32,000 bases of DNA from Halomicrobium mukohataei DSM 12286 (GCF_000023965.1 NC_013202.1:3060001-3092000), one strand, 5' to 3'; positions 11,350 to 29,124 are shown, counted from the stretch's first letter. Made by a program: numbers and translations. The notes: generated from the letters alone by a model not told the origin.

Positions 11350-12401
11350 GCGTCGCCGACTACGCGGCCGAGCATCGCCTCGCCGTCGGCGGCGGGCTCG
11401 CCGCGCTCGCTGCCGTGGCAGCGATCACGCTGCTGGATCTGCCCGGCGCGGACCTGCTGACCGTCGGTGCCGCGGAGCGATCACTGCAGGCCGCGATGCC
11501 GATCGCGCTGGCCGCGATCGGCGGCCTGTACGCCGAGAAGAGCGGCGTGTTCAACATCGGTCTGGAGGGGTTCATGATCTTCGGGGCCCTGACCGCGGCC
11601 GCCGCGGCGTGGCTCATCTCCGGTGAGGGAGCGATCACGCAGGGCGACCTCTGGCTCGCGATCCTCGTCGCAGTGGCCTTCTGCGCGCTGTTGACGGTTG
11701 CCTTTGCCGTCCTGACGATCCGGTACAAGGCCGACCAGATCGTCGCCGGACTGGCGGTGTGGTTCATCGGCCTGGGCTTTGGGCCCTTCGGGGCGACGGT
11801 CGTGTGGGGCGGGGTCTCCAGCCCGACACTGCCGAACGTGAACAACGTCGTCGTTCCCGGGCTCGCCGAGCTACCGGTGCTCGGACGGCTGCTGTTCGAT
11901 ACGTCGCCGCTCGTCCTGTTGACGCTCGTCCTGACGGTCCTCGCGTGGGTCGTCCTCTACCGGACCCGCTACGGCTACTGGATCCAGGCGGCCGGCGAGA
12001 ACCCCGAGGCGCTGGACACTGCAGGCGTCGACGTGAACCGCGTTCGCTACGCGACCGTCATCTTCTCGGGAGCGATGGCGGGCCTGGCCGGTGCGACGCT
12101 GTCGATCGGCATCGGGAGCGGCTTCACCGGCACCGGCGTCACGATGGTCGACGGACGCGGCTGGATCGCCATCGTCGCCTACCTCTTTGGCAACTACAAC
12201 CCGATCGGGGCCTTCCTCGCGTCGCTGCTCTTTGGCGCGATGGACATGCTCCAGATCCAGCTCCAGACGGTCGGGATCTCGCTACCGGGCTCGATCACCG
12301 GACTGTTCCCCTACGTCGCCGTGCTCGTCGTGCTCACGCTGGTGGGCTACACGCGCGTGCCCGCCGCGGTCGGCGAGGCCTACGAGACGGAATCGGAGTA
12401 G
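11346..12401 (+). CDS. ABC transporter permease (second subunit)
   Basis: Multi-TM protein. The FNIGLEG motif parallels FNIGVQG in the preceding permease. ATGA overlap with the upstream gene. Confidence 0.85.
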   Translation: MSVADYAAEHRLAVGGGLAALAAVAAITLLDLPGADLLTVGAAERSLQAAMPIALAAIGGLYAEKSGVFNIGLEGFMIFGALTAAAAAWLISGEGAITQGDLWLAILVAVAFCALLTVAFAVLTIRYKADQIVAGLAVWFIGLGFGPFGATVVWGGVSSPTLPNVNNVVVPGLAELPVLGRLLFDTSPLVLLTLVLTVLAWVVLYRTRYGYWIQAAGENPEALDTAGVDVNRVRYATVIFSGAMAGLAGATLSIGIGSGFTGTGVTMVDGRGWIAIVAYLFGNYNPIGAFLASLLFGAMDMLQIQLQTVGISLPGSITGLFPYVAVLVVLTLVGYTRVPAAVGEAYETESE

Positions 12402-12461: not shown

Positions 12462-12959
12462 ATGGTCGTCTCACATCCGGGACAGCGTGTCGGCGTTCTC
12501 GCCGACGCCCAGAACCTCTATCACACCGCCCGGAGTCTTCATACGCGAAACATCGACTACGAAGCACTGCTCGACGAGGCCGTCAATGACCGGGCGCTCA
12601 CCCGCGCCATCGCATACGTCATCCGAGCGAACTCGCCCGACGAAGAGAGCTTCTTCGAGGCGCTCGAAGACATCGGCTTCGAGACCCGCATCAAGGATAT
12701 CAAGACCTTCGGCGACGGCTCGAAGAAGGCCGACTGGGACGTGGGAATGAGCCTCGACGCCGTCTCGCTGGCCCCCCACGTCGACACGGTCGTGCTCATC
12801 ACCGGCGACGGCGACTTCGCCCGTCTCTGTCGATATCTCCGCCACGAGGGCGTCAAAGTCGAGACGATGGGCTTCGAGGAGTCGACGGCGGAGGAACTCG
12901 TCGAGGCCGCAGACCACTTCCGAAACCTTAGCGACGACGCCGAGCAGTATCTGTTGTAG
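12462..12959 (+). CDS. NYN (LabA-like) domain protein
   Basis: VGVLADAQNLYH at the N-terminus and LITGDGDF are the conserved acidic motifs of the NYN/LabA PIN-like fold. Confidence 0.7.
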   Translation: MVVSHPGQRVGVLADAQNLYHTARSLHTRNIDYEALLDEAVNDRALTRAIAYVIRANSPDEESFFEALEDIGFETRIKDIKTFGDGSKKADWDVGMSLDAVSLAPHVDTVVLITGDGDFARLCRYLRHEGVKVETMGFEESTAEELVEAADHFRNLSDDAEQYLL

Positions 12960-13226
12960 AAGCCTGATAGACCCGAGAGGGAGGAATTCGATAGCCCCAA
13001 CGGTAACGTTCACGCCCGCGATCTCGAGTATCTCTGTTTCCCAAGAACCAGTTATCGAGACTAGGGCTCATTCCATGTCAAAACACACTTCGATACACAG
13101 TCATAAAATATGATTAATACGATATCGTCGATACAGGAGACGGCGACTTTGGTCAAATGAACAATAGGGTGGAACCGATGAATATGATTGACCTTTCGGT
13201 GCGAGCAAATCGACAATACGCTCGGG

Positions 13227-13670
13227 TTAAGTCGTTTGTGGTTCACCACGACGGAATGGAGGGAGACGGCCAACAAAGCCACCAACCCGTGCACCGATAA
13301 CACTGATCAGAGAAAGAACAATGAGAGAGAAAACAAACCAGAGAGCTCCGAAAGCAATAGTTAGGACTGCAGTGACAGGCGATATCGCCCATCCAGAGGC
13401 GATGAGACTGGGGACGAGTAAAAAGGAGTCCAAAGCGCTAATCACGCCGATTCGTAAGCCAGCCTGTGTCGGAGAGGGTGATCGCATTTCATTACTGTAG
13501 TACAAACCTCCGAGAAATCCAGCGAACAGCGCTGGAGCCGCGTTGTATTCATATGGCAGCGTATTCCAAGAACTAAACAGTGTGACCGGAATTGTGACGA
13601 ATCCGAGTGCTGTTGCGGCTCGTAGATCCTTGGACAACAACCAACTATAGAGAATATTTATCACTGACAT
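13227..13670 (-). CDS. integral membrane protein (about 4 TM), low-GC island 1
   Basis: 147 aa ORF with several hydrophobic segments. It uses AT-rich codons, unlike the surrounding genome, and is divergent from the secreted-protein gene at 14086. Confidence 0.5.
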   Translation of the reverse strand: MSVINILYSWLLSKDLRAATALGFVTIPVTLFSSWNTLPYEYNAAPALFAGFLGGLYYSNEMRSPSPTQAGLRIGVISALDSFLLVPSLIASGWAISPVTAVLTIAFGALWFVFSLIVLSLISVIGARVGGFVGRLPPFRRGEPQTT

Positions 13671-13823
13671 TTTATCTGGTTTGGTTGTCGATCTTCATCA
13701 TAATATACATTTCGGATCGCAATAGGACGTTTGATTATTCATCCGATTTATATTTAATATAAATAATATATTTTTATTTAATAAATTAACTACTTTCCCT
13801 ACAGTTTACAATGTTGAACAGTC

Positions 13824-13950
13824 TGCTCTGTTGAATAGCAGTGTTGGCCGGAGCGGTCGAGATCTGAGTCGGCTTCTTGACCGTTGACGCTGTTGGTCCC
13901 AAGAACTCAATCAACTCACCGTGGCTCAGGGGCCGCTATTCAACACAGCA
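13824..13950. mobile_element. 127 bp MITE-like element with 16 bp terminal inverted repeats
   Basis: Left TIR TGCTCTGTTGAATAGC (13824-13839) matches the reverse complement of GCTATTCAACACAGCA (13935-13950) at 15 of 16 positions. A perfect 8 bp direct repeat GAACAGTC flanks it at 13816-13823 and 13951-13958. The core is GC-rich and sits in AT-rich DNA. Confidence 0.6.
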
Positions 13951-14085
13951 GAACAGTCCATTACACACTGTATTTCATCACACCCTGCAGATTCAGAAGA
14001 GATTTAATAGTTGGTAAGATTATTATAAAATATAGATAATTAATCCATACCGGTATATTTATTAAGATAGCATAACAGAGATTAA

Positions 14086-14719
14086 ATGATGTCTGAAAAA
14101 CACACCTTGAATGGACAAACTAGAAGAAGGACACTCCAAATGCTTGCCGGCAGCGGAGTCGGGCTTGGATTCGCTAGTAATGCAGCAGCGCAAGGGAGAA
14201 AGAGGGATGGTAAAATAGAAGAGGATGACTTGACACGCGCTGAAGGTACCTCTGGCTTTGTGACGAGTAATGAACAGACACCCGATTGGTTCACTATTAA
14301 AGACAATGGCGAATGGAATATTCAAGATCCAGAAGCCGTCCAAAACGGAGAATTTACCACTCAGGGCCATAAAAGTTGCTTAAATGACACTCTTGAATTA
14401 GGGTTTGAAAGGAAGATTAAAGGTGTTGAGTTCAAATTCCTCATCCACCACTCAGACATGTAAGTGGGGTCTCGACATCTCAGCCGTAGGCCAAAGTTAC
14501 GACTCTAGAGTTGTTGACAACTGTGACGTTGAAGTCGCTCTTGATTTCAACGCCGGAGTTGCAACTCTTGAGGGTACAGTAAGTGGACATTCGAATGGTA
14601 ATGATGTTATTGCACTGGTCGACTGGTGGGAAATTGACCTTACGGCTACGTGGTACGATCCGGACAAAGGTTGGGAATCAAAGACGGTGATGGCCTCAAT
14701 TGAAAACCCACTTACGTAA
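14086..14719 (+). pseudogene. Tat-signal secreted protein, apparently split by a frameshift
   Basis: ORF 14086-14463 starts with a twin-arginine signal (GQTRRRTLQMLAGSGVGLGFASNAAAQG). ORF 14405-14719 overlaps it by 59 nt in the next frame and has no signal or promoter of its own. Both use AT-rich codons. Confidence 0.5.
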
Positions 14720-14964
14720 GACTGTATGAAATATGGGCTCCATTGGAGTCCTTTTCGTAATCATTCAAAACGTCTTTGACTACCGAAAACAGTCGGTCTC
14801 GTCGTAAATATCATAACAAGTCTCGTGGGATTGTTATACATAAACTAATATTCCAATGGTATTTCGAAATATTGTGGCTTAAATAAGTCGGGGGACTCGA
14901 TCCCTTTGATTAATTACGACAATCGCTATCGGATCTCGAACCGAATGATTGACCAGAACCAATC

Positions 14965-15147
14965 TCAGACCGGGCGCTTGTCTTCCGAGGTGCCGACGAA
15001 CAGCGCACCGGCGGCCATTCCGAGCGCGGCGATCGAGGCCGCCCACAGCGGGAAACCGCTGCCTAACTGACCGGTGCCCAGAATGATCGCGCTGCTCGCG
15101 ACGAGCAAGACCGTGCCCAGTACGACTTTTCGCGTATCCGTTGCCAT
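14965..15147 (-). CDS. small two-TM membrane protein (60 aa)
   Basis: Uses the internal ATG at 15145-15147 (MATDTRKVVLGTVLLVASSAIILG...). Two hydrophobic helices and GC-rich codons. A TATA-like box lies about 25-30 nt upstream. Confidence 0.45.
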   Translation of the reverse strand: MATDTRKVVLGTVLLVASSAIILGTGQLGSGFPLWAASIAALGMAAGALFVGTSEDKRPV

Positions 15148-15171
15148 ACCCGGTACTAGCGGGTCATCCGG

Positions 15172-15177
15172 TATAAG
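15172..15177 (-). promoter_or_regulatory. putative TATA box for the 14965-15147 gene
   Basis: The minus strand reads CTTATA, 24 nt upstream of the ATG. This spacing is expected for a leaderless haloarchaeal transcript. Confidence 0.3.
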
Positions 15178-15343
15178 TTTCTCCAAAACCGCCCGACACG
15201 GCCGTGATAACTGGGACCAAACCACACAGTATCGGGGCGTTACGCGCTATAGTAACAATTGAAACGATTTACACACCGATCGCACTGCTGTCGTGCGATC
15301 GGGTGAACATTGAATTTCAATGGCTACTATAGTTTGCCGGATC

Positions 15344-15705
15344 GTGTTCAGATAAGCCACTGCATCTTCTGAGTTGTAGACACCGAAAGCCCTCGTCGCG
15401 CTCCGGCATTCTGTGACGGATATCTTCACTTCGTTCAGATAGTGCCGCCACAGAATGCCGGACCACGACTCGCCCTTTCATCCGCCAGGAGAGCACGCTC
15501 TCCTGAGCCTGTGCTCACCCTGTTCGCACAGACGCCAGGATTCGGCCGTTGAACCGTCTAGACCCTGGTGGATGAAAGGGCGAGCGCAGTTGCGGGAACC
15601 CCGACGATGCAAGCACCGACTGGAGCGCAGCGAGTCGCGGGACCGCAACTGCGCGAGGGCTTTCGGTGTCTGCACCACTACGCTGACAGTCGCTTATCTG
15701 AACAC
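15344..15705. repeat. nested-palindrome structured element, copy 1 (362 bp)
   Basis: GTGTTCAGATAAG 15344-15356 pairs with CTTATCTGAACAC 15693-15705. AGACACCGAAAGCCCTCG 15378-15395 pairs with 15654-15671 (18 bp, perfect). Three internal hairpins have stems at 15403-15419/15445-15461, 15469-15489/15564-15584 and 15585-15595/15643-15653. Confidence 0.8.
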
Positions 15706-15776
15706 TACCGTTTGCCGGTCGGTACTGCGACAGAGAGAACAGTCGACTTTTGGTCGGCGACGACCTTCGCCGGACA

Positions 15777-17495: not shown

Positions 17496-18206
17496 TCAGA
17501 CGACGGCGATACCCGTCGCCAGCAGATTGATCCCGAGGTGTGCGATCGTGCTACTGGCCGTTCCATAGCGGTGTCTGAGGAGGCCGAGGACGACCGCGAT
17601 CACGACCAGCGACACGAAGCGGAACGTCGGTGCGCCGAGGTCGACGACGACGTGTTTCGCCACGAACGCCCCAGCAGTCACGGCAATCCCAAGCGCCGGT
17701 CCGTACGCGTCGACGAGTGCCGTCTGGACGACGCCACGCCAGGCCAACTCCTCTGCGATCGGGACGATCACACCGTTGACCAACAGGAGTGTCGGGACGA
17801 CCCAGACGGCCGTCTCGGCACCGCCTGCAGGCGTCGGCACTGAGGGAACGCCGACGGTGAAGACGTAGACGACCGCGAACGTCAGCAGCAGGGCGAAGTA
17901 GGCCACGACGCCGACGATGCCACCGGCGACGGCACCCGGAGACAGCTCGTAGCGCCAGCGATCGGGCCCGATACCGCTCCAGCGCCCGATCGTTGCTGCC
18001 AGGACAGCGAGAGTCGGAAACGTGATCGCGAGCAGGAGCATATCCGCGCCCTCACCGCTTCCGACCGCATCGGCGAGCAGTGGTGTTCCGCGACGGCGCA
18101 CGAGAAACTCCACTGTGACCCACGTCGCGACGACGACGGCCGCGAGCGCGCGCGGATCCGACAGCATACGCCCGAGTCTCCGGGCAGGAGCATCTGGTTC
18201 AGACAT
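17496..18206 (-). CDS. CPBP family intramembrane glutamic endopeptidase (CAAX/Abi-type)
   Basis: Multi-TM protein with the EELAWRG motif and downstream His motifs (FVAKHVV, IAHLGINL). Confidence 0.8.
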   Translation of the reverse strand: MSEPDAPARRLGRMLSDPRALAAVVVATWVTVEFLVRRRGTPLLADAVGSGEGADMLLLAITFPTLAVLAATIGRWSGIGPDRWRYELSPGAVAGGIVGVVAYFALLLTFAVVYVFTVGVPSVPTPAGGAETAVWVVPTLLLVNGVIVPIAEELAWRGVVQTALVDAYGPALGIAVTAGAFVAKHVVVDLGAPTFRFVSLVVIAVVLGLLRHRYGTASSTIAHLGINLLATGIAVV

Positions 18207-19370: not shown

Positions 19371-19682
19371 GTGTTCAGATAAGCAGCAGCACTGACTGAC
19401 ATATAGACACCGAAAGCCCTCGTGCAGTTGCGGTCCCGCGGCTCGCTGCGCGCGCTCCGCGTGCTTGCTTCGCCGGGGTTCCCGCAACTGCACTCGCCCT
19501 TTCATCCGCCAGGGTTCAGACGGTGAACCAGCCGATTCCTGGTGGATGAAAGGGCGAGGTGCGGTCGACGGTTCTGCGGCGGCACTATCGAACGCAGTGA
19601 AGATATCCGCCACAGAACCGCCGAGCGTGCCGAGGGCTTTCGGTGCCTCGACGATGCTACTCTCGATCTCTTATCTGAACAC
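19371..19682. repeat. nested-palindrome structured element, copy 2 (312 bp, inverted relative to copy 1)
   Basis: It has the same terminal 13-mers (19371-19383 and 19670-19682). The 18-mer stem is 19405-19422 with 19631-19648 (17 of 18 paired). Hairpins lie at 19493-19513/19538-19558 and 19569-19582/19607-19620. The internal order and loop sequences equal the reverse complement of copy 1. Confidence 0.8.
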
Positions 19683-19692
19683 TACCCATCGC

Positions 19693-23716: not shown

Positions 23717-24376
23717 GTGGCACCGACAGTGGCGTCTGTGCCCTCCAACACAGACAGCGACGGTCCGCGAGACGTAGCCGCCGTCGTGCGTCGATACCGA
23801 CGGCTCGAACGACCGATCAGCGCCGGCATCGCCGTCCTCGTCGGACTCGTCGCGGCCGTCGCGATCATCACGCTCCCGCTGGTGGTCGGCCTCGCGGTCG
23901 CCCTCGCCGTGTTCGTCGCCGTCCGCGTCCCCATCTTCGAGACCGGCGGGACGACGACGCTGTCGACCCAGCAGCGTCCCGACGAGGTGCGTGCGGCCTT
24001 CGAGAGTGCCAGCCCGCCGCCGCTGGTCTTCCAGTGGGGACTGGCCGACGAGGTCGAACAGACAGACGGAGGCTGGTCCTACGAGATCTCGTATCTCCTG
24101 GGACTGCGGTCGGTCCGACTGCACGTCGAGACCCACTCCGGCGACGACGCCGACCTCGAACTGGTGGTCACCGTCGGCGACCAGTCGTGGGGGACCTACC
24201 GCGTCGACATCGAGGCCCGCGACGACGAGACGATCGTCGTGATCGACACGACCTCGGATCGCAGATTCGGCCTCCGACGGCTGCCACAGTGGTTCGTGGG
24301 CCAGCGATACCGGGTGGCGGCGCTGTCCGCACAGGGCTACACCGTCGTCGAGCAGGACGCGCGACTGACGCTCTAG
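23717..24376 (+). CDS. hypothetical membrane-anchored protein
   Basis: Start provisionally placed at GTG 23717 (VAPTVASVPSN...). The segment ISAGIAVLVGLVAAVAIITLPLVVGLAVALAVFVAV forms a TM hairpin, followed by a soluble acidic domain. The start is uncertain. Confidence 0.45.
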   Translation: MAPTVASVPSNTDSDGPRDVAAVVRRYRRLERPISAGIAVLVGLVAAVAIITLPLVVGLAVALAVFVAVRVPIFETGGTTTLSTQQRPDEVRAAFESASPPPLVFQWGLADEVEQTDGGWSYEISYLLGLRSVRLHVETHSGDDADLELVVTVGDQSWGTYRVDIEARDDETIVVIDTTSDRRFGLRRLPQWFVGQRYRVAALSAQGYTVVEQDARLTL

Positions 24377-24627
24377 CGCCGCTCGACGACCCGGTCGATC
24401 GTCAGCCGGTCGTAGCCCAGCCCCTCGTGGACCGCGAGCTCCAAGGCGTTGACGAGATAGTGGGCGACGACGACCACGAGCAGGCTGTCGGTGAGGACGA
24501 ACCCGGCCGCCAGCGCCAGACCGAGCCCGCCGGTGACGAGCATCCCGACTCGCCCCTGCGCGCCGTGAGCGGCACCGAAGACGACCGACGAGGCTGCGTG
24601 CAGCCACGGCGAGAGAGAGAAGCCAGC
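24373..24627 (-). pseudogene. orphan 3' fragment of a CPBP/abi gene (duplicate of 26226-26480)
   Basis: Minus-strand translation is ...AGFSLSPWLHAASSVVFGAAHGAQGRVGMLVTGGLGLALAAGFVLTDSLLVVVVAHYLVNALELAVHEGLGYDRLTIDRVVERR*. Nucleotides 24395-24592 match 26241-26438 with 5 mismatches in 198 nt by hand alignment. There is no N-terminal part and no start codon. Confidence 0.75.
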
Positions 24628-24980
24628 GGTCAGCGCGCTAGGCGAGACCGTGACCGTCGAGAGTGTTGGCGACCATACGGGCGGCGAGGTCAGCCAGCTT
24701 TACGTGAAAGACCCCGTCAGATCGAAGGTCACGCCGTCCCACAAGATCTGTGGGGAAGAGTGCGTGCGTTTCGACGACAGTGAGTCGACGACCGTCAAGT
24801 TCGACCACACACCCACGATCGGGCAACCATCATGTGACCGGACGGCGAGAAGCACGTCGAGGCCGACAGCTTCGAACCGATCGTCGGCGAGGACACTGTC
24901 CGGCTCGAAGTCGCAGACAGAGTTATTTATAATCGATTATAGACGCTGTCTTTTTCTTCAAACACCGGAAATATATTCAC

Positions 24981-25808
24981 TCACAACACAGCCTCTGCCT
25001 CTTCTTGGTCTTCCGGATACGACCATGAATCCGCACCTGTATCAATATTCACCCCGAGCGGAGGATATGTAAGAACAACACTTTCTAAGAAATTAAGACC
25101 AGCATTCCCAAATACGCTCCAGGTGTGTTCGTATGTTCCTGCGATTCTGCCCGGTACCCTATCCGGGAAGTTTTGTTTGTTCAGAGTGAATTGGAGGCTT
25201 CCAACAATTTTCTCCGGATGCTGGAAGCTCAAATCATTATCACTTACTTTTATTCCAACTGCTGAGGCACCATCACTGCCGATAGGGTTGTCGTCAGGTT
25301 CTTCGGTTTTAATGTCTTCAACTTCTCCAGATGTGCTGTACCCCTGGCAACTATGTTCGATAGAATCACTACCATCTAATCCAAATTGGCTGTCCTCCCA
25401 TCCAATAACTACTCCATCTTTGGGTGGTGCTCCGTCAATGTCTACTTTTTCTTGGAAAAACAAGCTCCAGCTTAGCATAACATCAATCTTTTTGCCGAGA
25501 TCATTTGCCATAAATTGGCAATTTGATTCGCTTGAGTCATAATGGCTGAAAAAGTCTTGAGTTTGGACCGAATCTGATTTTTCACCCGGCGAGAATTCGC
25601 CAGTTAGATCATTTGCTTTGAGTTTAAAGCCCGCATGCTCAGCGAGAGCATACGCTTCCTCAAAGTTTTGGTTAGCAACCGCCGTCTGGATTTGACTCCG
25701 AATATGCTTTTTATGTCTCCCACGACTCCCTTGTCCCGAGACAGTTGCGCTAATGAATGGTACTGATAGGGCGGTACCTGCGGTCTTTAGAATCGATCTT
25801 CGATCCAT
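24981..25808 (-). CDS. Tat-signal secreted protein of unknown function, low-GC island 2
   Basis: The ATG at 25806-25808 gives MDRRSILKTAGTALSVPFISATVSGQG, a twin-arginine signal. The mature part is acidic and Ser/Asp/Gly-rich with a few Cys. It uses AT-rich codons. Confidence 0.6.
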   Translation of the reverse strand: MDRRSILKTAGTALSVPFISATVSGQGSRGRHKKHIRSQIQTAVANQNFEEAYALAEHAGFKLKANDLTGEFSPGEKSDSVQTQDFFSHYDSSESNCQFMANDLGKKIDVMLSWSLFFQEKVDIDGAPPKDGVVIGWEDSQFGLDGSDSIEHSCQGYSTSGEVEDIKTEEPDDNPIGSDGASAVGIKVSDNDLSFQHPEKIVGSLQFTLNKQNFPDRVPGRIAGTYEHTWSVFGNAGLNFLESVVLTYPPLGVNIDTGADSWSYPEDQEEAEAVL

Positions 25809-25915
25809 ATTGCAGATTGACATTCGTATAGACATGTATTAAATGTATGTAATTAGGATATAAACTCCTATAGTATATCACAAAATACTTATATGTGTTG
25901 ATAATTATTTTAGGT

Positions 25916-26098
25916 ATGGATGAAATCAAAGGATACCTATCAATTATAACAATTCTCCTCGGAATTCAGACACTCAACGCGGTTTCTGATAACACGAGCA
26001 GTCTTTTTACTGAAGTTGGAGCAGCCCTCTCCATCTTAGTGATACTTCTTGTCCCAATTTTCCTCCTCGGAAAAGCAGTCCACTCGAAATTGCGATAA
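25916..26098 (+). CDS. small two-TM protein (60 aa), low-GC island 2
   Basis: MDEIKGYLSIITILLGIQTL...ALSILVILLVPIFLLGKAV. It is divergent from the secreted-protein gene across a 107 nt AT-rich spacer. Confidence 0.4.
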   Translation: MDEIKGYLSIITILLGIQTLNAVSDNTSSLFTEVGAALSILVILLVPIFLLGKAVHSKLR

Positions 26099-26225
26099 TA
26101 TGATCTTCTGAGGAAGTTAAGCATGTGGTAACAAAGTGGCTCGTCGCGCGGCGATACCGCAACGAGCCGTTGGCCGCATAGGGGTACAGGGTCGTCGACC
26201 GAGAGACCGAGCTCTCGTTCGGAAG

Positions 26226-27038
26226 TTAGTCGATGAGCGTCTCGATCGTCAGCCGGTCGTAGCCCAGCCCCTCGTGGACCGCGAGCTCCAGGGCGTTGAC
26301 GAGGTAGTGGGCGACGACGACCACGAGCAGGCTGTCGGTGAGGACGAACCCGGCCGCCAGCGCCAGACCGAGCCCGCCGGTGACGAGCATGCCGACGCGC
26401 CCCTGCGCGCCGTGGGCGGCACCGAAGACGACCGACGAGACGACCGCGAGCAGCCACGGCGAGACGGAGAATCCGGCCGCCATCGCGCCGATGGCAGCGC
26501 CACGGAAGACGACCTCCTCGACGACGGCGACGGTCGGCAGCGCGACGCCGAGCAACAGCACCCACCCACCCAGTGAGTCGGGGGCGAGCAGTTCGCGGAC
26601 GGCCTCGTCGTAGCCCGCACCGGTGGCGTCGGCGACTGCACCCGCGGCTTCGTTGGCCAGCCAGAGGGCGACGCCGAAGCCGATCCCGACGGCGACGCCG
26701 GGGAGCCCACGGGCGAGCGCGGTCTCGGGGATCCCGAGCGCCCACGGCGGGATCGAGAAGTACACCGCGGCCCCGACGACGACCGCGCCGAACAGCCCCT
26801 GGGTCACGACGACGTTGGCGAGCAAGGCACCGGGCGACAGCCGCGCCCGCGGGTCCGCTACCGGCCGCTCGAAGCGCGGCACGACCGGGTCGGTCGGTCG
26901 CGGATCGCGTGGCGAGGGCTCCCTGAACCGGACTGGGTCGTCGTCGCCGCTCAGGGCAGACTGGGACGCTCTCGCGAGTGCGAGAAGCAAGAACAGAGAG
27001 AGGGCGAGCAGGCCGGCGAAGGCGGCCCACCGCGCCAC
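26226..27038 (-). CDS. abi: CPBP family intramembrane protease (Abi), second gene of the lonB operon
   Basis: EEVVFRGAAIG and FGAAHG motifs in a multi-TM protein. The GTG start is only 4 nt after the lonB stop. A lonB-abi arrangement is established for Haloferax volcanii. Confidence 0.8.
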   Translation of the reverse strand: MARWAAFAGLLALSLFLLLALARASQSALSGDDDPVRFREPSPRDPRPTDPVVPRFERPVADPRARLSPGALLANVVVTQGLFGAVVVGAAVYFSIPPWALGIPETALARGLPGVAVGIGFGVALWLANEAAGAVADATGAGYDEAVRELLAPDSLGGWVLLLGVALPTVAVVEEVVFRGAAIGAMAAGFSVSPWLLAVVSSVVFGAAHGAQGRVGMLVTGGLGLALAAGFVLTDSLLVVVVAHYLVNALELAVHEGLGYDRLTIETLID

Positions 27039-27042
27039 GGTT

Positions 27043-29124
27043 CTACTGCGGGCTGGGTGAGCCGCTCTGCTGGCCCACTTCGCGTTCGAGCGCTTTGCCG
27101 GTGATGGACTTGAGCCGGTCGACCAGCGAGTCCTTCTCGGGCTCGCCGGCCAGGGCCACTTCCAGCACCTCGGAGATGTGCGAGACCGGGACGATCTCGA
27201 TCATCTCCTCGTACTCCTCTTCGATCATCACGTCCTGGGTGTTTGCCTCGGGGATGATGACCGTATCGAGCCCGGACTTGGCCGCGGCCTCGATCTTGTG
27301 GGTCACGCCGCCGACGGGCAACACGTCGCCCCGCACCGACAGCGAGCCGGTCATCGCGAGGTTCTGCTCGATCGGAACGTTCTCCAGCGCGGAGATGACC
27401 GCCGTCGCGACCGTGATCGAGGCGGAGTCGCCGTCGACACCGCCCTCGCCGGCCTGAACGAACTGGATGTGAACGTCCTTCTCGGAGATGTCCTCGTCCG
27501 AGAACTTCTTGATGATCGCCGAGACGTTCTGGACTGCCTCCTCGGCCATCTCCTTGAGCTGGCCGGTGGCGATCACCTGACCGGGACCCTGCGAGGGCGT
27601 GACCTCCGCCATGACCGGGAGGACGATCCCGCTGTCCTCGCCCATCACGGCCAGACCGTTGACGCGGCCGACCACGTCGCCCTCGTTGACGGTCAGTTCG
27701 TAGTCCTTGCGGCGTTCGATGTAGTCGTCTGCGAGCTGTTGCTCGATGGAGCGACTCCGGCCTTTGGCCTGGAGCACGTCCTCGCGAGTGGTCACGTCCT
27801 GATCCTCCGCGCGGGCGATGTCGCCCGCGACGCGGACCAGTCCGCCCAGTTCGCGCAGTTTCAGGGTCAAGTGCCCTTTGCGGCCCGCGCGGCGGCGGGC
27901 TTCGAGGATGATCTCCTCGACGGCCTCGCGGTCGAAGTGGGGGAGTCGCCCGTCGTTCTCGACTTCCTGTGCGATGAAGCGGGTGAGCTTCCGGCGCATC
28001 TCCGGGGTGTCCTCGATGGTGTCGTCCATGTACACCTCGTAGCCGTACCCCTTGATCCGGGAGCGCAGCGCGGGGTGCATGTTCTCCATGGCGTCGAGGT
28101 TCCCCGCCGCGATCATGATGAAATCACAGGGGACGGGCTCGGTCTGGACCATCGCGCCCGAGGAGCGCTCGGACTGGCCAGTGATGGAGAACTCGCCCTC
28201 CTGGATCGCGGTCATGAGTTTCTGCTGGCTGCGGATGTCCAGCGTGTTGATCTCGTCGACGAACAGGACGCCCTTGTTGGCCTTGTGGATCGCGCCGGCC
28301 TCGACGCGGTCGTGGCTGGGCGTCTCCATCCCACCGGACTGGAACGGGTCGTGGCGAACGTCGCCCAGCAGCGCACCGGCGTGGGCACCGGTCGCGTCCT
28401 CGAAGGGCGCGGTGGTCTGGTTCGCGCGGTTGACCAGCAGGTTCGGGATCATCGAGTCGTTGCCACGCGAGCCATAGCGGAAGGCCAGGTAGATGACACC
28501 GGCCGCGAGGATCCCCAGCAGGACCGACCCCTGGATGATCAGCGCGTAACCGATGATGATGGCGATGATGATCCACATCAGGAAGGTCCGCATCTGGTTT
28601 CGCTTGCGGGCCTCCTCCTTGTGGGCGTCGACGATCTGTTCGCCCTTCCCGGCGGGGACGGTTCGAACCTTCGGCTCGTTTCCGTCGTCCGGGTTGTGGT
28701 AGACCAGAACGTCCTGTAGTTCCTCTTTCGGGAGCAGTTGGCTCATCGCTTTGGCCAGCATCGACTTGCCCGTCCCGGGCGAGCCGATCATCATCACGTG
28801 ACGGCGCTGTTTGGCTGCCTTTTTGATGACGTCACGGGCGTGGTCCTGCCCGATGACCTGATCGACGAGTCGGTCGGGGACTTCGATGTCGCTGGTCGAC
28901 TCGATGCCGAGCCCACCGAGGAGCCCGTCTTCGTCGTCGAGGGACGCGCCGCTCTCGACTTCGACCTCACTGCCGAGGTCGTCGAGGCCGCCACCTTCGG
29001 CCCCGCCACTCTCCACAGTGTCACCAGCGTCGTCGGCCGCGCTGTGGTCGTCGTCTTCGGGCGGCGTCCCGGTCACCTCCCGCTCGTCGTCGGGAGTGTC
29101 GTCGATCTCGGTATTGTCGCTCAT
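27043..29124 (-). CDS. lonB: archaeal membrane-bound Lon protease
   Basis: Walker A GSPGTGKSMLAKA. A TM insertion (FLMWIIIAIIIGYALIIQGSVLLGILAAGVIYLAF) lies inside the AAA+ module. The protease domain has MTGSLSVRGDVLPVGG (catalytic Ser) and KIEAAAKSG (Lys). Start taken at ATG 29122-29124 (MSDNTEIDD). Confidence 0.95.
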   Translation of the reverse strand: MSDNTEIDDTPDDEREVTGTPPEDDDHSAADDAGDTVESGGAEGGGLDDLGSEVEVESGASLDDEDGLLGGLGIESTSDIEVPDRLVDQVIGQDHARDVIKKAAKQRRHVMMIGSPGTGKSMLAKAMSQLLPKEELQDVLVYHNPDDGNEPKVRTVPAGKGEQIVDAHKEEARKRNQMRTFLMWIIIAIIIGYALIIQGSVLLGILAAGVIYLAFRYGSRGNDSMIPNLLVNRANQTTAPFEDATGAHAGALLGDVRHDPFQSGGMETPSHDRVEAGAIHKANKGVLFVDEINTLDIRSQQKLMTAIQEGEFSITGQSERSSGAMVQTEPVPCDFIMIAAGNLDAMENMHPALRSRIKGYGYEVYMDDTIEDTPEMRRKLTRFIAQEVENDGRLPHFDREAVEEIILEARRRAGRKGHLTLKLRELGGLVRVAGDIARAEDQDVTTREDVLQAKGRSRSIEQQLADDYIERRKDYELTVNEGDVVGRVNGLAVMGEDSGIVLPVMAEVTPSQGPGQVIATGQLKEMAEEAVQNVSAIIKKFSDEDISEKDVHIQFVQAGEGGVDGDSASITVATAVISALENVPIEQNLAMTGSLSVRGDVLPVGGVTHKIEAAAKSGLDTVIIPEANTQDVMIEEEYEEMIEIVPVSHISEVLEVALAGEPEKDSLVDRLKSITGKALEREVGQQSGSPSPQ

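Follow-up and report, generated by a model that had tools for sequence, protein, structure and literature searches.

A low-GC islet bracketed by a duplicated abi gene end in Halomicrobium mukohataei: probable foreign insertion with gene-end replacement

The entry of mobile DNA into the 3' end of a gene has been described for the prophage e14 (and phage 21) in icd of Escherichia coli, where the element supplies a substitute end for the gene that it enters. In E. coli K-12, e14 starts 165 bp before the icd stop codon, and a 165-bp pseudogene, icdC, lies at its far end; the icd copies around the prophage differ mainly by silent changes. Related structures arise by Campbell-type insertion-duplication and by homology-facilitated illegitimate recombination (HFIR), in which homology on one segment only leads either to a duplication or to one homologous and one illegitimate joint (PMC3240628). 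In haloarchaea, flexible islands of low guanine-plus-cytosine (GC) content are found in high-GC chromosomes, differing among strains, variable in content and flanked by conserved core genes. Here, we analyse a locus that has traits of all these systems, located in a stretch of 32,000 nucleotides from Halomicrobium mukohataei DSM 12286 (GCF_000023965.1 NC_013202.1:3060001-3092000), hereafter the window, to whose first letter all coordinates refer unless another sequence is named. In this window, the gene abi, which follows lonB, and its convergent neighbour, gene X, are held apart by a low-GC islet bracketed by two copies of the abi/X junction (Table 1).

The duplicated abi/X junction and the origin of its two halves

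A repeat search of the window found a direct repeat of 210 nt with 95% identity (24383-24592 versus 26230-26439, offset 1847), within which pairwise alignment defines a core of 198 nt with 5 mismatches. Upstream of this core, within abi, a 3-nt indel changes the offset from 1847 to 1850. By self-comparison, the full repeat extends over 24285-24638 and 26132-26488 (358 aligned columns, 83.5% identity overall), the flanks of the core being about 70-75% identical in the two copies. Its abi-end part corresponds to 24373-24631 versus 26226-26488, and past the abi stop codon it runs into the 3' end of X (24285-24372 versus 26132-26225, about 70%). The repeat is far above chance level, the best non-self direct match in the window scoring 371 bits against 41.9 bits or less in shuffled sequences (n = 20). 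A preliminary description of this DNA, made from the sequence alone, had reported a duplication of about 250 bp of the abi 3' end, with an orphan copy at 24373-24627. The duplication is real, and alignment bears out the 5 core mismatches, the 3-nt indel, the two different tails and the position of the orphan stop codon; but the repeat is longer than had been thought, since it enters X, and the homology of the orphan to abi reaches 24631.

Table 1. Features of the abi/X locus in the window.
Feature	Coordinates	Strand	Description
Gene X	23738..24376	+	Conserved haloarchaeal membrane protein, 212 aa; convergent native neighbour of abi
Orphan abi 3' fragment	24373..24631	-	About 86 codons, tail TIDRVVERR; very probably the displaced native end
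Left core copy	24395..24592		97.5% identical to 26242-26439
Y' fragment	24632..24918	+	Pseudogene piece: last ~98 codons and stop region of a glycoside hydrolase family 3 (GH3) beta-glucosidase/xylosidase gene
Low-GC cassette	24919..26131		GC ~40-50%
isl284	24981..25835	-	Secreted protein with twin-arginine translocation (Tat) signal, predicted beta-rich
isl67	25916..26098	+	Predicted two-helix membrane protein, 60 aa; divergent from isl284
X' fragment	26132..26229	+	98 nt, last ~32 codons of a foreign X gene; pseudogene
abi	26226..27038	-	CPBP/Rce1-like intramembrane protease, 270 aa, intact
Right core copy	26242..26439		From repeat search and alignment
lonB	27043..29124	-	Archaeal membrane Lon protease, upstream of abi; Pfam Lon_C and LonB_AAA-LID

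Each copy of the repeat comprises the whole convergent abi/X junction with its overlapping stop codons, abi being intact in one copy and X in the other. At the junction with intact X, the stop codon of the orphan (24373-24375) overlaps that of X (24374-24376) as CTAG. At the junction with intact abi, the stop codon of the X remnant (X') overlaps that of abi; X' has an in-frame TAG at 26179-26181 and is translated as KWLVARRYRNEPLAA, a stop, GYRVVDRETELSFGS and a second stop. The intact gene carries the tail TIETLID (about 26226-26243), very probably an incoming replacement end (in all tails quoted here, the stop codon follows the last residue). The 5 differences between the copies of the core, taken as 195 nt, are all synonymous, while random changes there would be synonymous in 29% of cases (P ~0.002). 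It follows that both cores still belonged to functional abi genes when they accumulated these differences, which would be expected if an incoming allele met a resident one, and not of a duplicate subject to pseudogene drift.

An uninterrupted version of the site, which the preliminary description had suggested seeking in related genomes, is present in a Halomicrobium metagenome scaffold (L009). In this scaffold, the genes run nre-g123-X/abi-lonB, the island is absent and the stop codons overlap by 4 bp; the flanks are 98.5% and 96.5% identical to those of the island-bearing HM KBTZ05 (L006), and 96% and 91% identical to those of the window. The 4-bp overlap of the X and abi stop codons extends to the outgroup contigs L010-L014, so that it is found across several genera, and X is then followed by g123 in L011-L014. 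From the scaffold and the outgroup synteny, lonB-abi/X-g123 is the ancestral arrangement, and the orphan together with X represents the ancestral junction, as had been proposed; the convergent association of X with abi may be functional. In two more distant relatives (L004 7846-8208 and L005 1610-1930), X is missing and g123 lies directly after abi, inverted in the former and co-directional in the latter, which indicates that the DNA just downstream of abi has been repeatedly rearranged across the order.

The two junctions come from separate lineages. The abi of the uninterrupted scaffold ends in TIDGVTERL (C-terminal sequence GYDRLTIDGVTERL), of the same type as the orphan tail TIDRVVERR, whereas the intact abi of every island-bearing strain has a tail of the ET type: TIETLID in the window, TIETLTG in H. 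katesii and TVETFAGDP in HM KBTZ05, the last being nearly equal to TVETIAGDP of L010. In a seven-sequence alignment, every variable column downstream of 26241 tells the same story, the orphans of the window and H. katesii following the uninterrupted scaffold and the intact-abi copies of the window, H. katesii and L006 following L010. The remnant X' agrees with the C-terminus of the X of L010 in 23 of 29 residues, versus 13-14 of 29 for the X of Halomicrobium. A further link with L010 is gene order. In this contig, a gene called Y, coding for a GH3 enzyme according to NCBIfam, lies immediately beyond X (Y-X-abi), and the insert has the order Y', cassette, X' and abi tail, being collinear with that chromosome except that the cassette stands in place of the 5' 85% of X. 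The Y' piece is 74.5% identical to L010 5952-5691 by blastn and matches residues 509-606 of Y by tblastn, its region also having a weak Fn3-like match in Pfam. Thus, the present end of abi very probably came with the insert and the native end was displaced as the orphan, in agreement with the preliminary description, which had traced the present 3' end of abi to the DNA lying between the repeats. As to which tail is ancestral, a question raised there, the TID type is native to the Halomicrobium lineage only, while the ET type is the common form in the wider clade.

The orphan is still open for 56 aa from an ATG (24373-24543, minus strand) and is annotated as a gene in the assembly L002 (12496-12666). 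This short open reading frame (ORF) is probably not functional, because the orphan of H. katesii has suffered a 1-nt deletion and is frameshifted, being a pseudogene there. The orphan, X' and Y' are pseudogene remnants and should be annotated so.

Cargo, strain variation and a second instance

The foreign segment amounts to about 1.85 kb, of which about 1.5 kb lies between the repeats, and GC content drops from 65-72% in the flanks to ~40-50% between the repeats, Y' being GC-rich within the insert. The larger cassette gene, isl284, likely starts at the ATG at 25808, giving 275 aa as annotated in L001, and its product has the twin-arginine motif MDRRSILKTAG. Its family is small (44 clusters at 50% identity among 1.8 billion representatives), with named members in the haloarchaea Haloferax larsenii and Natrinema halophilum, and Tat signals are present in family members. 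The isl284 protein has no match in Pfam or NCBIfam and no sequence match in PDB, and scans for its relatives gave none in metagenome contigs (with two alignments), in viral contigs or, by tblastn, in plasmids and phages. An AlphaFold2 model (mean confidence, pLDDT, 63.5) is mostly beta, and its best Foldseek matches in PDB are pore-forming toxins of the alpha-hemolysin type (E ~1e-4), with TM-scores of only 0.25-0.27 from this mediocre model; such a predicted likeness is too weak to use and may serve only as a lead. The isl67 product, which has no Pfam or NCBIfam family, is 95% identical in H. katesii. No recombinase or transposase was found by Pfam and NCBIfam among the ORFs between the repeats, no tRNA or Rfam structured RNA in the window, and no integrase is annotated in L001 within 10 kb on either side of abi. 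A promoter and terminator scan of the island gave results indistinguishable from those of shuffled sequences.

The island is polymorphic, being full in the window, split by an insertion sequence (IS) in H. katesii, decayed in HM KBTZ05 and absent in the uninterrupted scaffold. In H. katesii DSM 19301 (scaffold KB905378), the abi-X'-isl67 side (L003) matches up to window position 25513, and the X-orphan-Y' side (L007), 1.7 Mb away, matches up to 25456. Inverted copies of an IS1595-family element (L003 8525-9571 and L007 11792-12838; 1047 bp, 99.4% identical) interrupt isl284 and sit at both breakpoints, so that the island of this strain was split by an IS-mediated chromosomal inversion. In HM KBTZ05, the decayed island (L006 10820-12036) keeps isl67, retains only the last ~100 nt of isl284 and has gained other low-GC DNA, about 0.55 kb long and including a membrane ORF of 84 aa (11562-11816); beside X, the native abi tail is reduced to its last 18 nt, of which 17 are identical to the uninterrupted scaffold.

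Another example of the same arrangement occurs in a distant lineage. The only close homologue of isl284 (P0242, 42-44% identity) is encoded on the distant metagenome contig L015. This contig opens with an abi 3' end (1-66), after which come a gene on the other strand for a membrane protein of 62 aa, the isl284 homologue and an orphan abi 3' fragment (about 1362-1488). The 62-aa protein holds the position of the isl67 product, which is 36% identical to it. The stop codon of the orphan overlaps that of a convergent MGMT-type gene by 4 bp. Over the 65 nt that lead up to the tail, both abi copies have the same sequence; from there on they differ, ending in RLG and RLGA. The gene order of the cassette and its orientation relative to abi are thus the same in this contig and the window, while the native neighbour differs; the duplicated length of abi is ~127 bp versus ~259 bp in the window, in a comparison that is partial because the first copy is cut by the contig end. 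In a relative of this lineage (L020), lonB-abi is followed first by a PAS-kinase gene and then by the MGMT gene, which supports the neighbourhood and is not a clean empty site. Remoter members of the isl284 family (30-34% identity) are found in other contexts, and no abi fragment occurs on the contigs of P0243, P0245 and P0246, which are short.

As for the flanking genes, abi matches PF02517 (E = 2.9e-14; 53.6 bits against a gathering cut-off of 22.4), and a lonB-abi pairing, with abi downstream, has been described in Haloferax volcanii (PMC7305310). The window has a second PF02517 (CPBP/Rce1-like) paralogue at about 17496-18206 (L001 18833-19543), about 8 kb from abi. The X protein has no Pfam or NCBIfam match, is 100% identical to P0121, named 'MULTISPECIES Halomicrobium', and has 147 homologues listed in Halobacteria. 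A Halomicrobium chromosome (CP045142.1) and RZNE01000001.1 are 100% identical to the window over a shared 15.8 kb, and the abi protein of the window maps exactly to both. Elsewhere in the window, a first low-GC island (about 12800-15400, GC 40-53%) contains small ORFs with no assigned family and one DUF5518 protein (13227-13670), and adjoins an NYN-domain gene (12462-12959); no integrase was seen there. A palindromic element resembling a miniature inverted-repeat transposable element (MITE), of ~340-365 bp, is present in two copies (15344-15709 and 19371-19686), one of them at the right edge of that island. Its termini are GTGTTCAGATAAG and CTTATCTGAACAC, its internal arms are 81-96% complementary, it has no Rfam match, and a 91-bp piece of it is 95.6% identical in a distant metagenome-assembled genome (L004).

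Possible routes of insertion

The starting state in Halomicrobium would have been lonB-abi followed directly by the convergent X, with the stop codons overlapping as CTAG and no intergenic space. Because these stop codons overlap, DNA can be inserted here without truncating either gene only if the junction is duplicated. A piece of ~1.85 kb from the lonB-abi neighbourhood of another haloarchaeon would then have entered at abi/X, bringing in this order Y' (the GH3 3' end), the low-GC cassette of isl284 and isl67, X' and the abi 3' end of its own lineage. Recombination with the resident abi may have taken place in the highly conserved 3' coding region, giving the topology of a Campbell-like insertion-duplication, in which the incoming end would complete abi (TIETLID) and the resident end (TIDRVVERR) would be pushed 1.85 kb downstream, as an orphan still fused to X. 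The agent would most likely be host homologous recombination, an enzymology that we infer, because the insert has no recombinase and its flanks are of foreign chromosomal origin. The joint between orphan and Y' (24631/24632) would be the closure point if a circularised fragment entered by a single crossover; alternatively, it would be an illegitimate joint at one end of a fragment with homology at the other, a route established in bacteria as HFIR (PMC3240628).

We consider this overall account, a homology-driven insertion with gene-end replacement, moderately probable, and give slightly better than even chances to the part of it that makes the route independent of an integrase. This route is favoured because no recombinase is found in four island versions and the donor gene fragments stand in donor order; because the repeat copies share no identical core at their upstream boundary, and the boundary itself differs between the two instances; and because the abi core, with 91-94% nucleotide identity between the window and L010, can anchor recombination between genera. 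Interspecies exchange also speaks for it, since recombination within and between haloarchaeal species has been reported to be frequent in Halobacteria (PMC4500145).

Several observations weigh against this account. No donor genome with the order Y-cassette-X'-abi has been found, L010 itself having an intact X and no cassette. The uninterrupted scaffold could be a product of excision instead of a never-occupied site, although both would fit an insertion. The joint at 24631/24632 has no homology, with GCGC as microhomology at best, and looks illegitimate from its sequence. The recurrence of the same cassette and topology in two lineages could mean that a dedicated mechanism acts in trans. Finally, the intact abi of the window is 7-11% divergent from those of L006 and L009 from about 26720, upstream of the duplicated part, and L006 and L009 share a private cluster of 10 differences within the core (26298-26364). 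A simple one-step model does not account for a mosaic so fine, with a core at 97.5% identity and tails and X parts at ~70%. The orphans resemble L009, and the intact gene resembles L010, near 26465-26483; judging from such sites, inter-strain recombination has clearly reshuffled the 3' third of abi, which is a mosaic differing among strains and whose informative sites fix neither the crossover point nor the choice between a circle and a linear fragment.

The rival that survives best is a site-specific integrative element, decayed or non-autonomous, whose attachment site (attP) contained the abi 3' end and whose tyrosine or serine recombinase was lost or is encoded elsewhere. The preliminary description had read the locus as such a scar, with attL/attR repeats and the integrase gone, and the topology does match that of e14 in E. 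coli K-12; moreover, two distant lineages share the cassette, its orientation and the gene end that it occupies, and its presence differs between near-identical strains. Nevertheless, we regard this explanation as unlikely. All four island versions (window, H. katesii, L006 and L015) lack a recombinase, the sole mobility gene seen being the unrelated IS1595 transposase that splits the H. katesii copy. The collinearity of X' and Y' with a foreign chromosome is not expected of an element with its own attP, the repeat copies differ at the upstream boundary with no conserved identical core, the duplicated length varies (~259 versus ~127 bp, the latter from the partial comparison), and the cassette protein has no homologue in phage and plasmid collections or viral contigs. 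Still more doubtful is a mobile unit of another kind, devoid of integrase, in which the two-gene module plus an abi 3' segment would leave as a circle through the abi repeats and re-enter the abi ends of other genera, its cargo, a secreted toxin resembling a pore-former together with a small immunity protein of the membrane, being functionally tied to the Abi/CPBP protease. In bacteria, the Abi/CPBP protease family is known for bacteriocin self-immunity.

A mirror history, in which abi with its ET tail and X' were native and truncated in place by the cassette, and the orphan, X and possibly g123-nre were imported, seems improbable. A Campbell-type structure is symmetric and by itself cannot tell the resident side, the ET tail is the commoner type in the wider clade, and the abi of the window is over its whole length closest to that of L010 (85% aa). 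Yet lonB-abi-X-g123 is conserved synteny in L011-L014 and in the uninterrupted Halomicrobium scaffold, while the Y-X adjacency of the insert is found in L010 only; the X of Halomicrobium is not anomalous, X proteins being about equally distant among all three lineages (53-61% aa); and such a history requires that a further crossover, of which nothing is seen, took place to the right of X and that the ancestral order was regained by import. The plain tandem duplication of the abi/X junction, followed by a low-GC insertion and drift of the non-functional halves, would explain why a direct repeat brackets the insert and why each copy has one functional and one non-functional half, but it is hardly credible: X' and the ET tail match the functional sequences of another lineage and not random decay, the core differences are synonymous throughout, Y' has no counterpart at the native locus, and no relative has both copies without the insert. 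This disposes of the alternative raised in the preliminary description, and the other one raised there, that all relatives might end in ETLID, is contradicted by the TID-type tail of the strain with the empty site. An ordinary IS or transposon insertion was rejected, there being no transposase, no terminal inverted repeats at the ends of the insert and a duplication of ~259-355 bp where less than 20 bp would be expected.

Significance and comparison with known systems

The locus shows, down to the nucleotide, how a short foreign segment can come to lie between two tightly overlapping archaeal genes with neither of them damaged. If the homology-driven route is true, conserved core-gene ends can act as landing pads for cassettes without integrase that move between haloarchaeal genera, and this would help to explain the spread of small low-GC flexible islets; gene-end repeats resembling attL/attR would then be no sure sign of a site-specific integrase.

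Some of these elements are already known, namely gene-end replacement with an orphan from e14/icd, and low-GC islets and promiscuous recombination from haloarchaea. As in the islet described here, the displaced native end of icd is the orphan at the far end of e14, and the insert lies between direct repeats of the gene end. However, e14 is 15 kb long and has its own integrase and excisionase (intE and xisE), whereas the islet has 1.85 kb and no recombinase; unlike e14, it carries fragments of foreign neighbour genes, and its duplicated junction includes the end of the convergent gene. The likeness to Campbell-type insertion-duplication and HFIR lies in the homology on one segment only. These processes have been demonstrated experimentally in bacteria with transforming or conjugated DNA, whereas here the process is deduced from natural haloarchaeal genomes; in HFIR, in addition, recipient DNA is usually lost, and its duplication is not the usual outcome. 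With the haloarchaeal flexible islands, the islet shares its low GC in a high-GC chromosome, its polymorphism among strains, its variable content and its conserved core-gene flanks, but it has two genes only, and the point at which it entered, inside a coding sequence whose end is duplicated, can be located with single-nucleotide precision. Replacement by recombination in flanking genes normally leaves no duplication, whereas the islet does. What is new is the minimal two-gene cassette without integrase in this topology, the direct trace of its foreign chromosomal origin, and the fact that a distant lineage shows it again at the same gene end.

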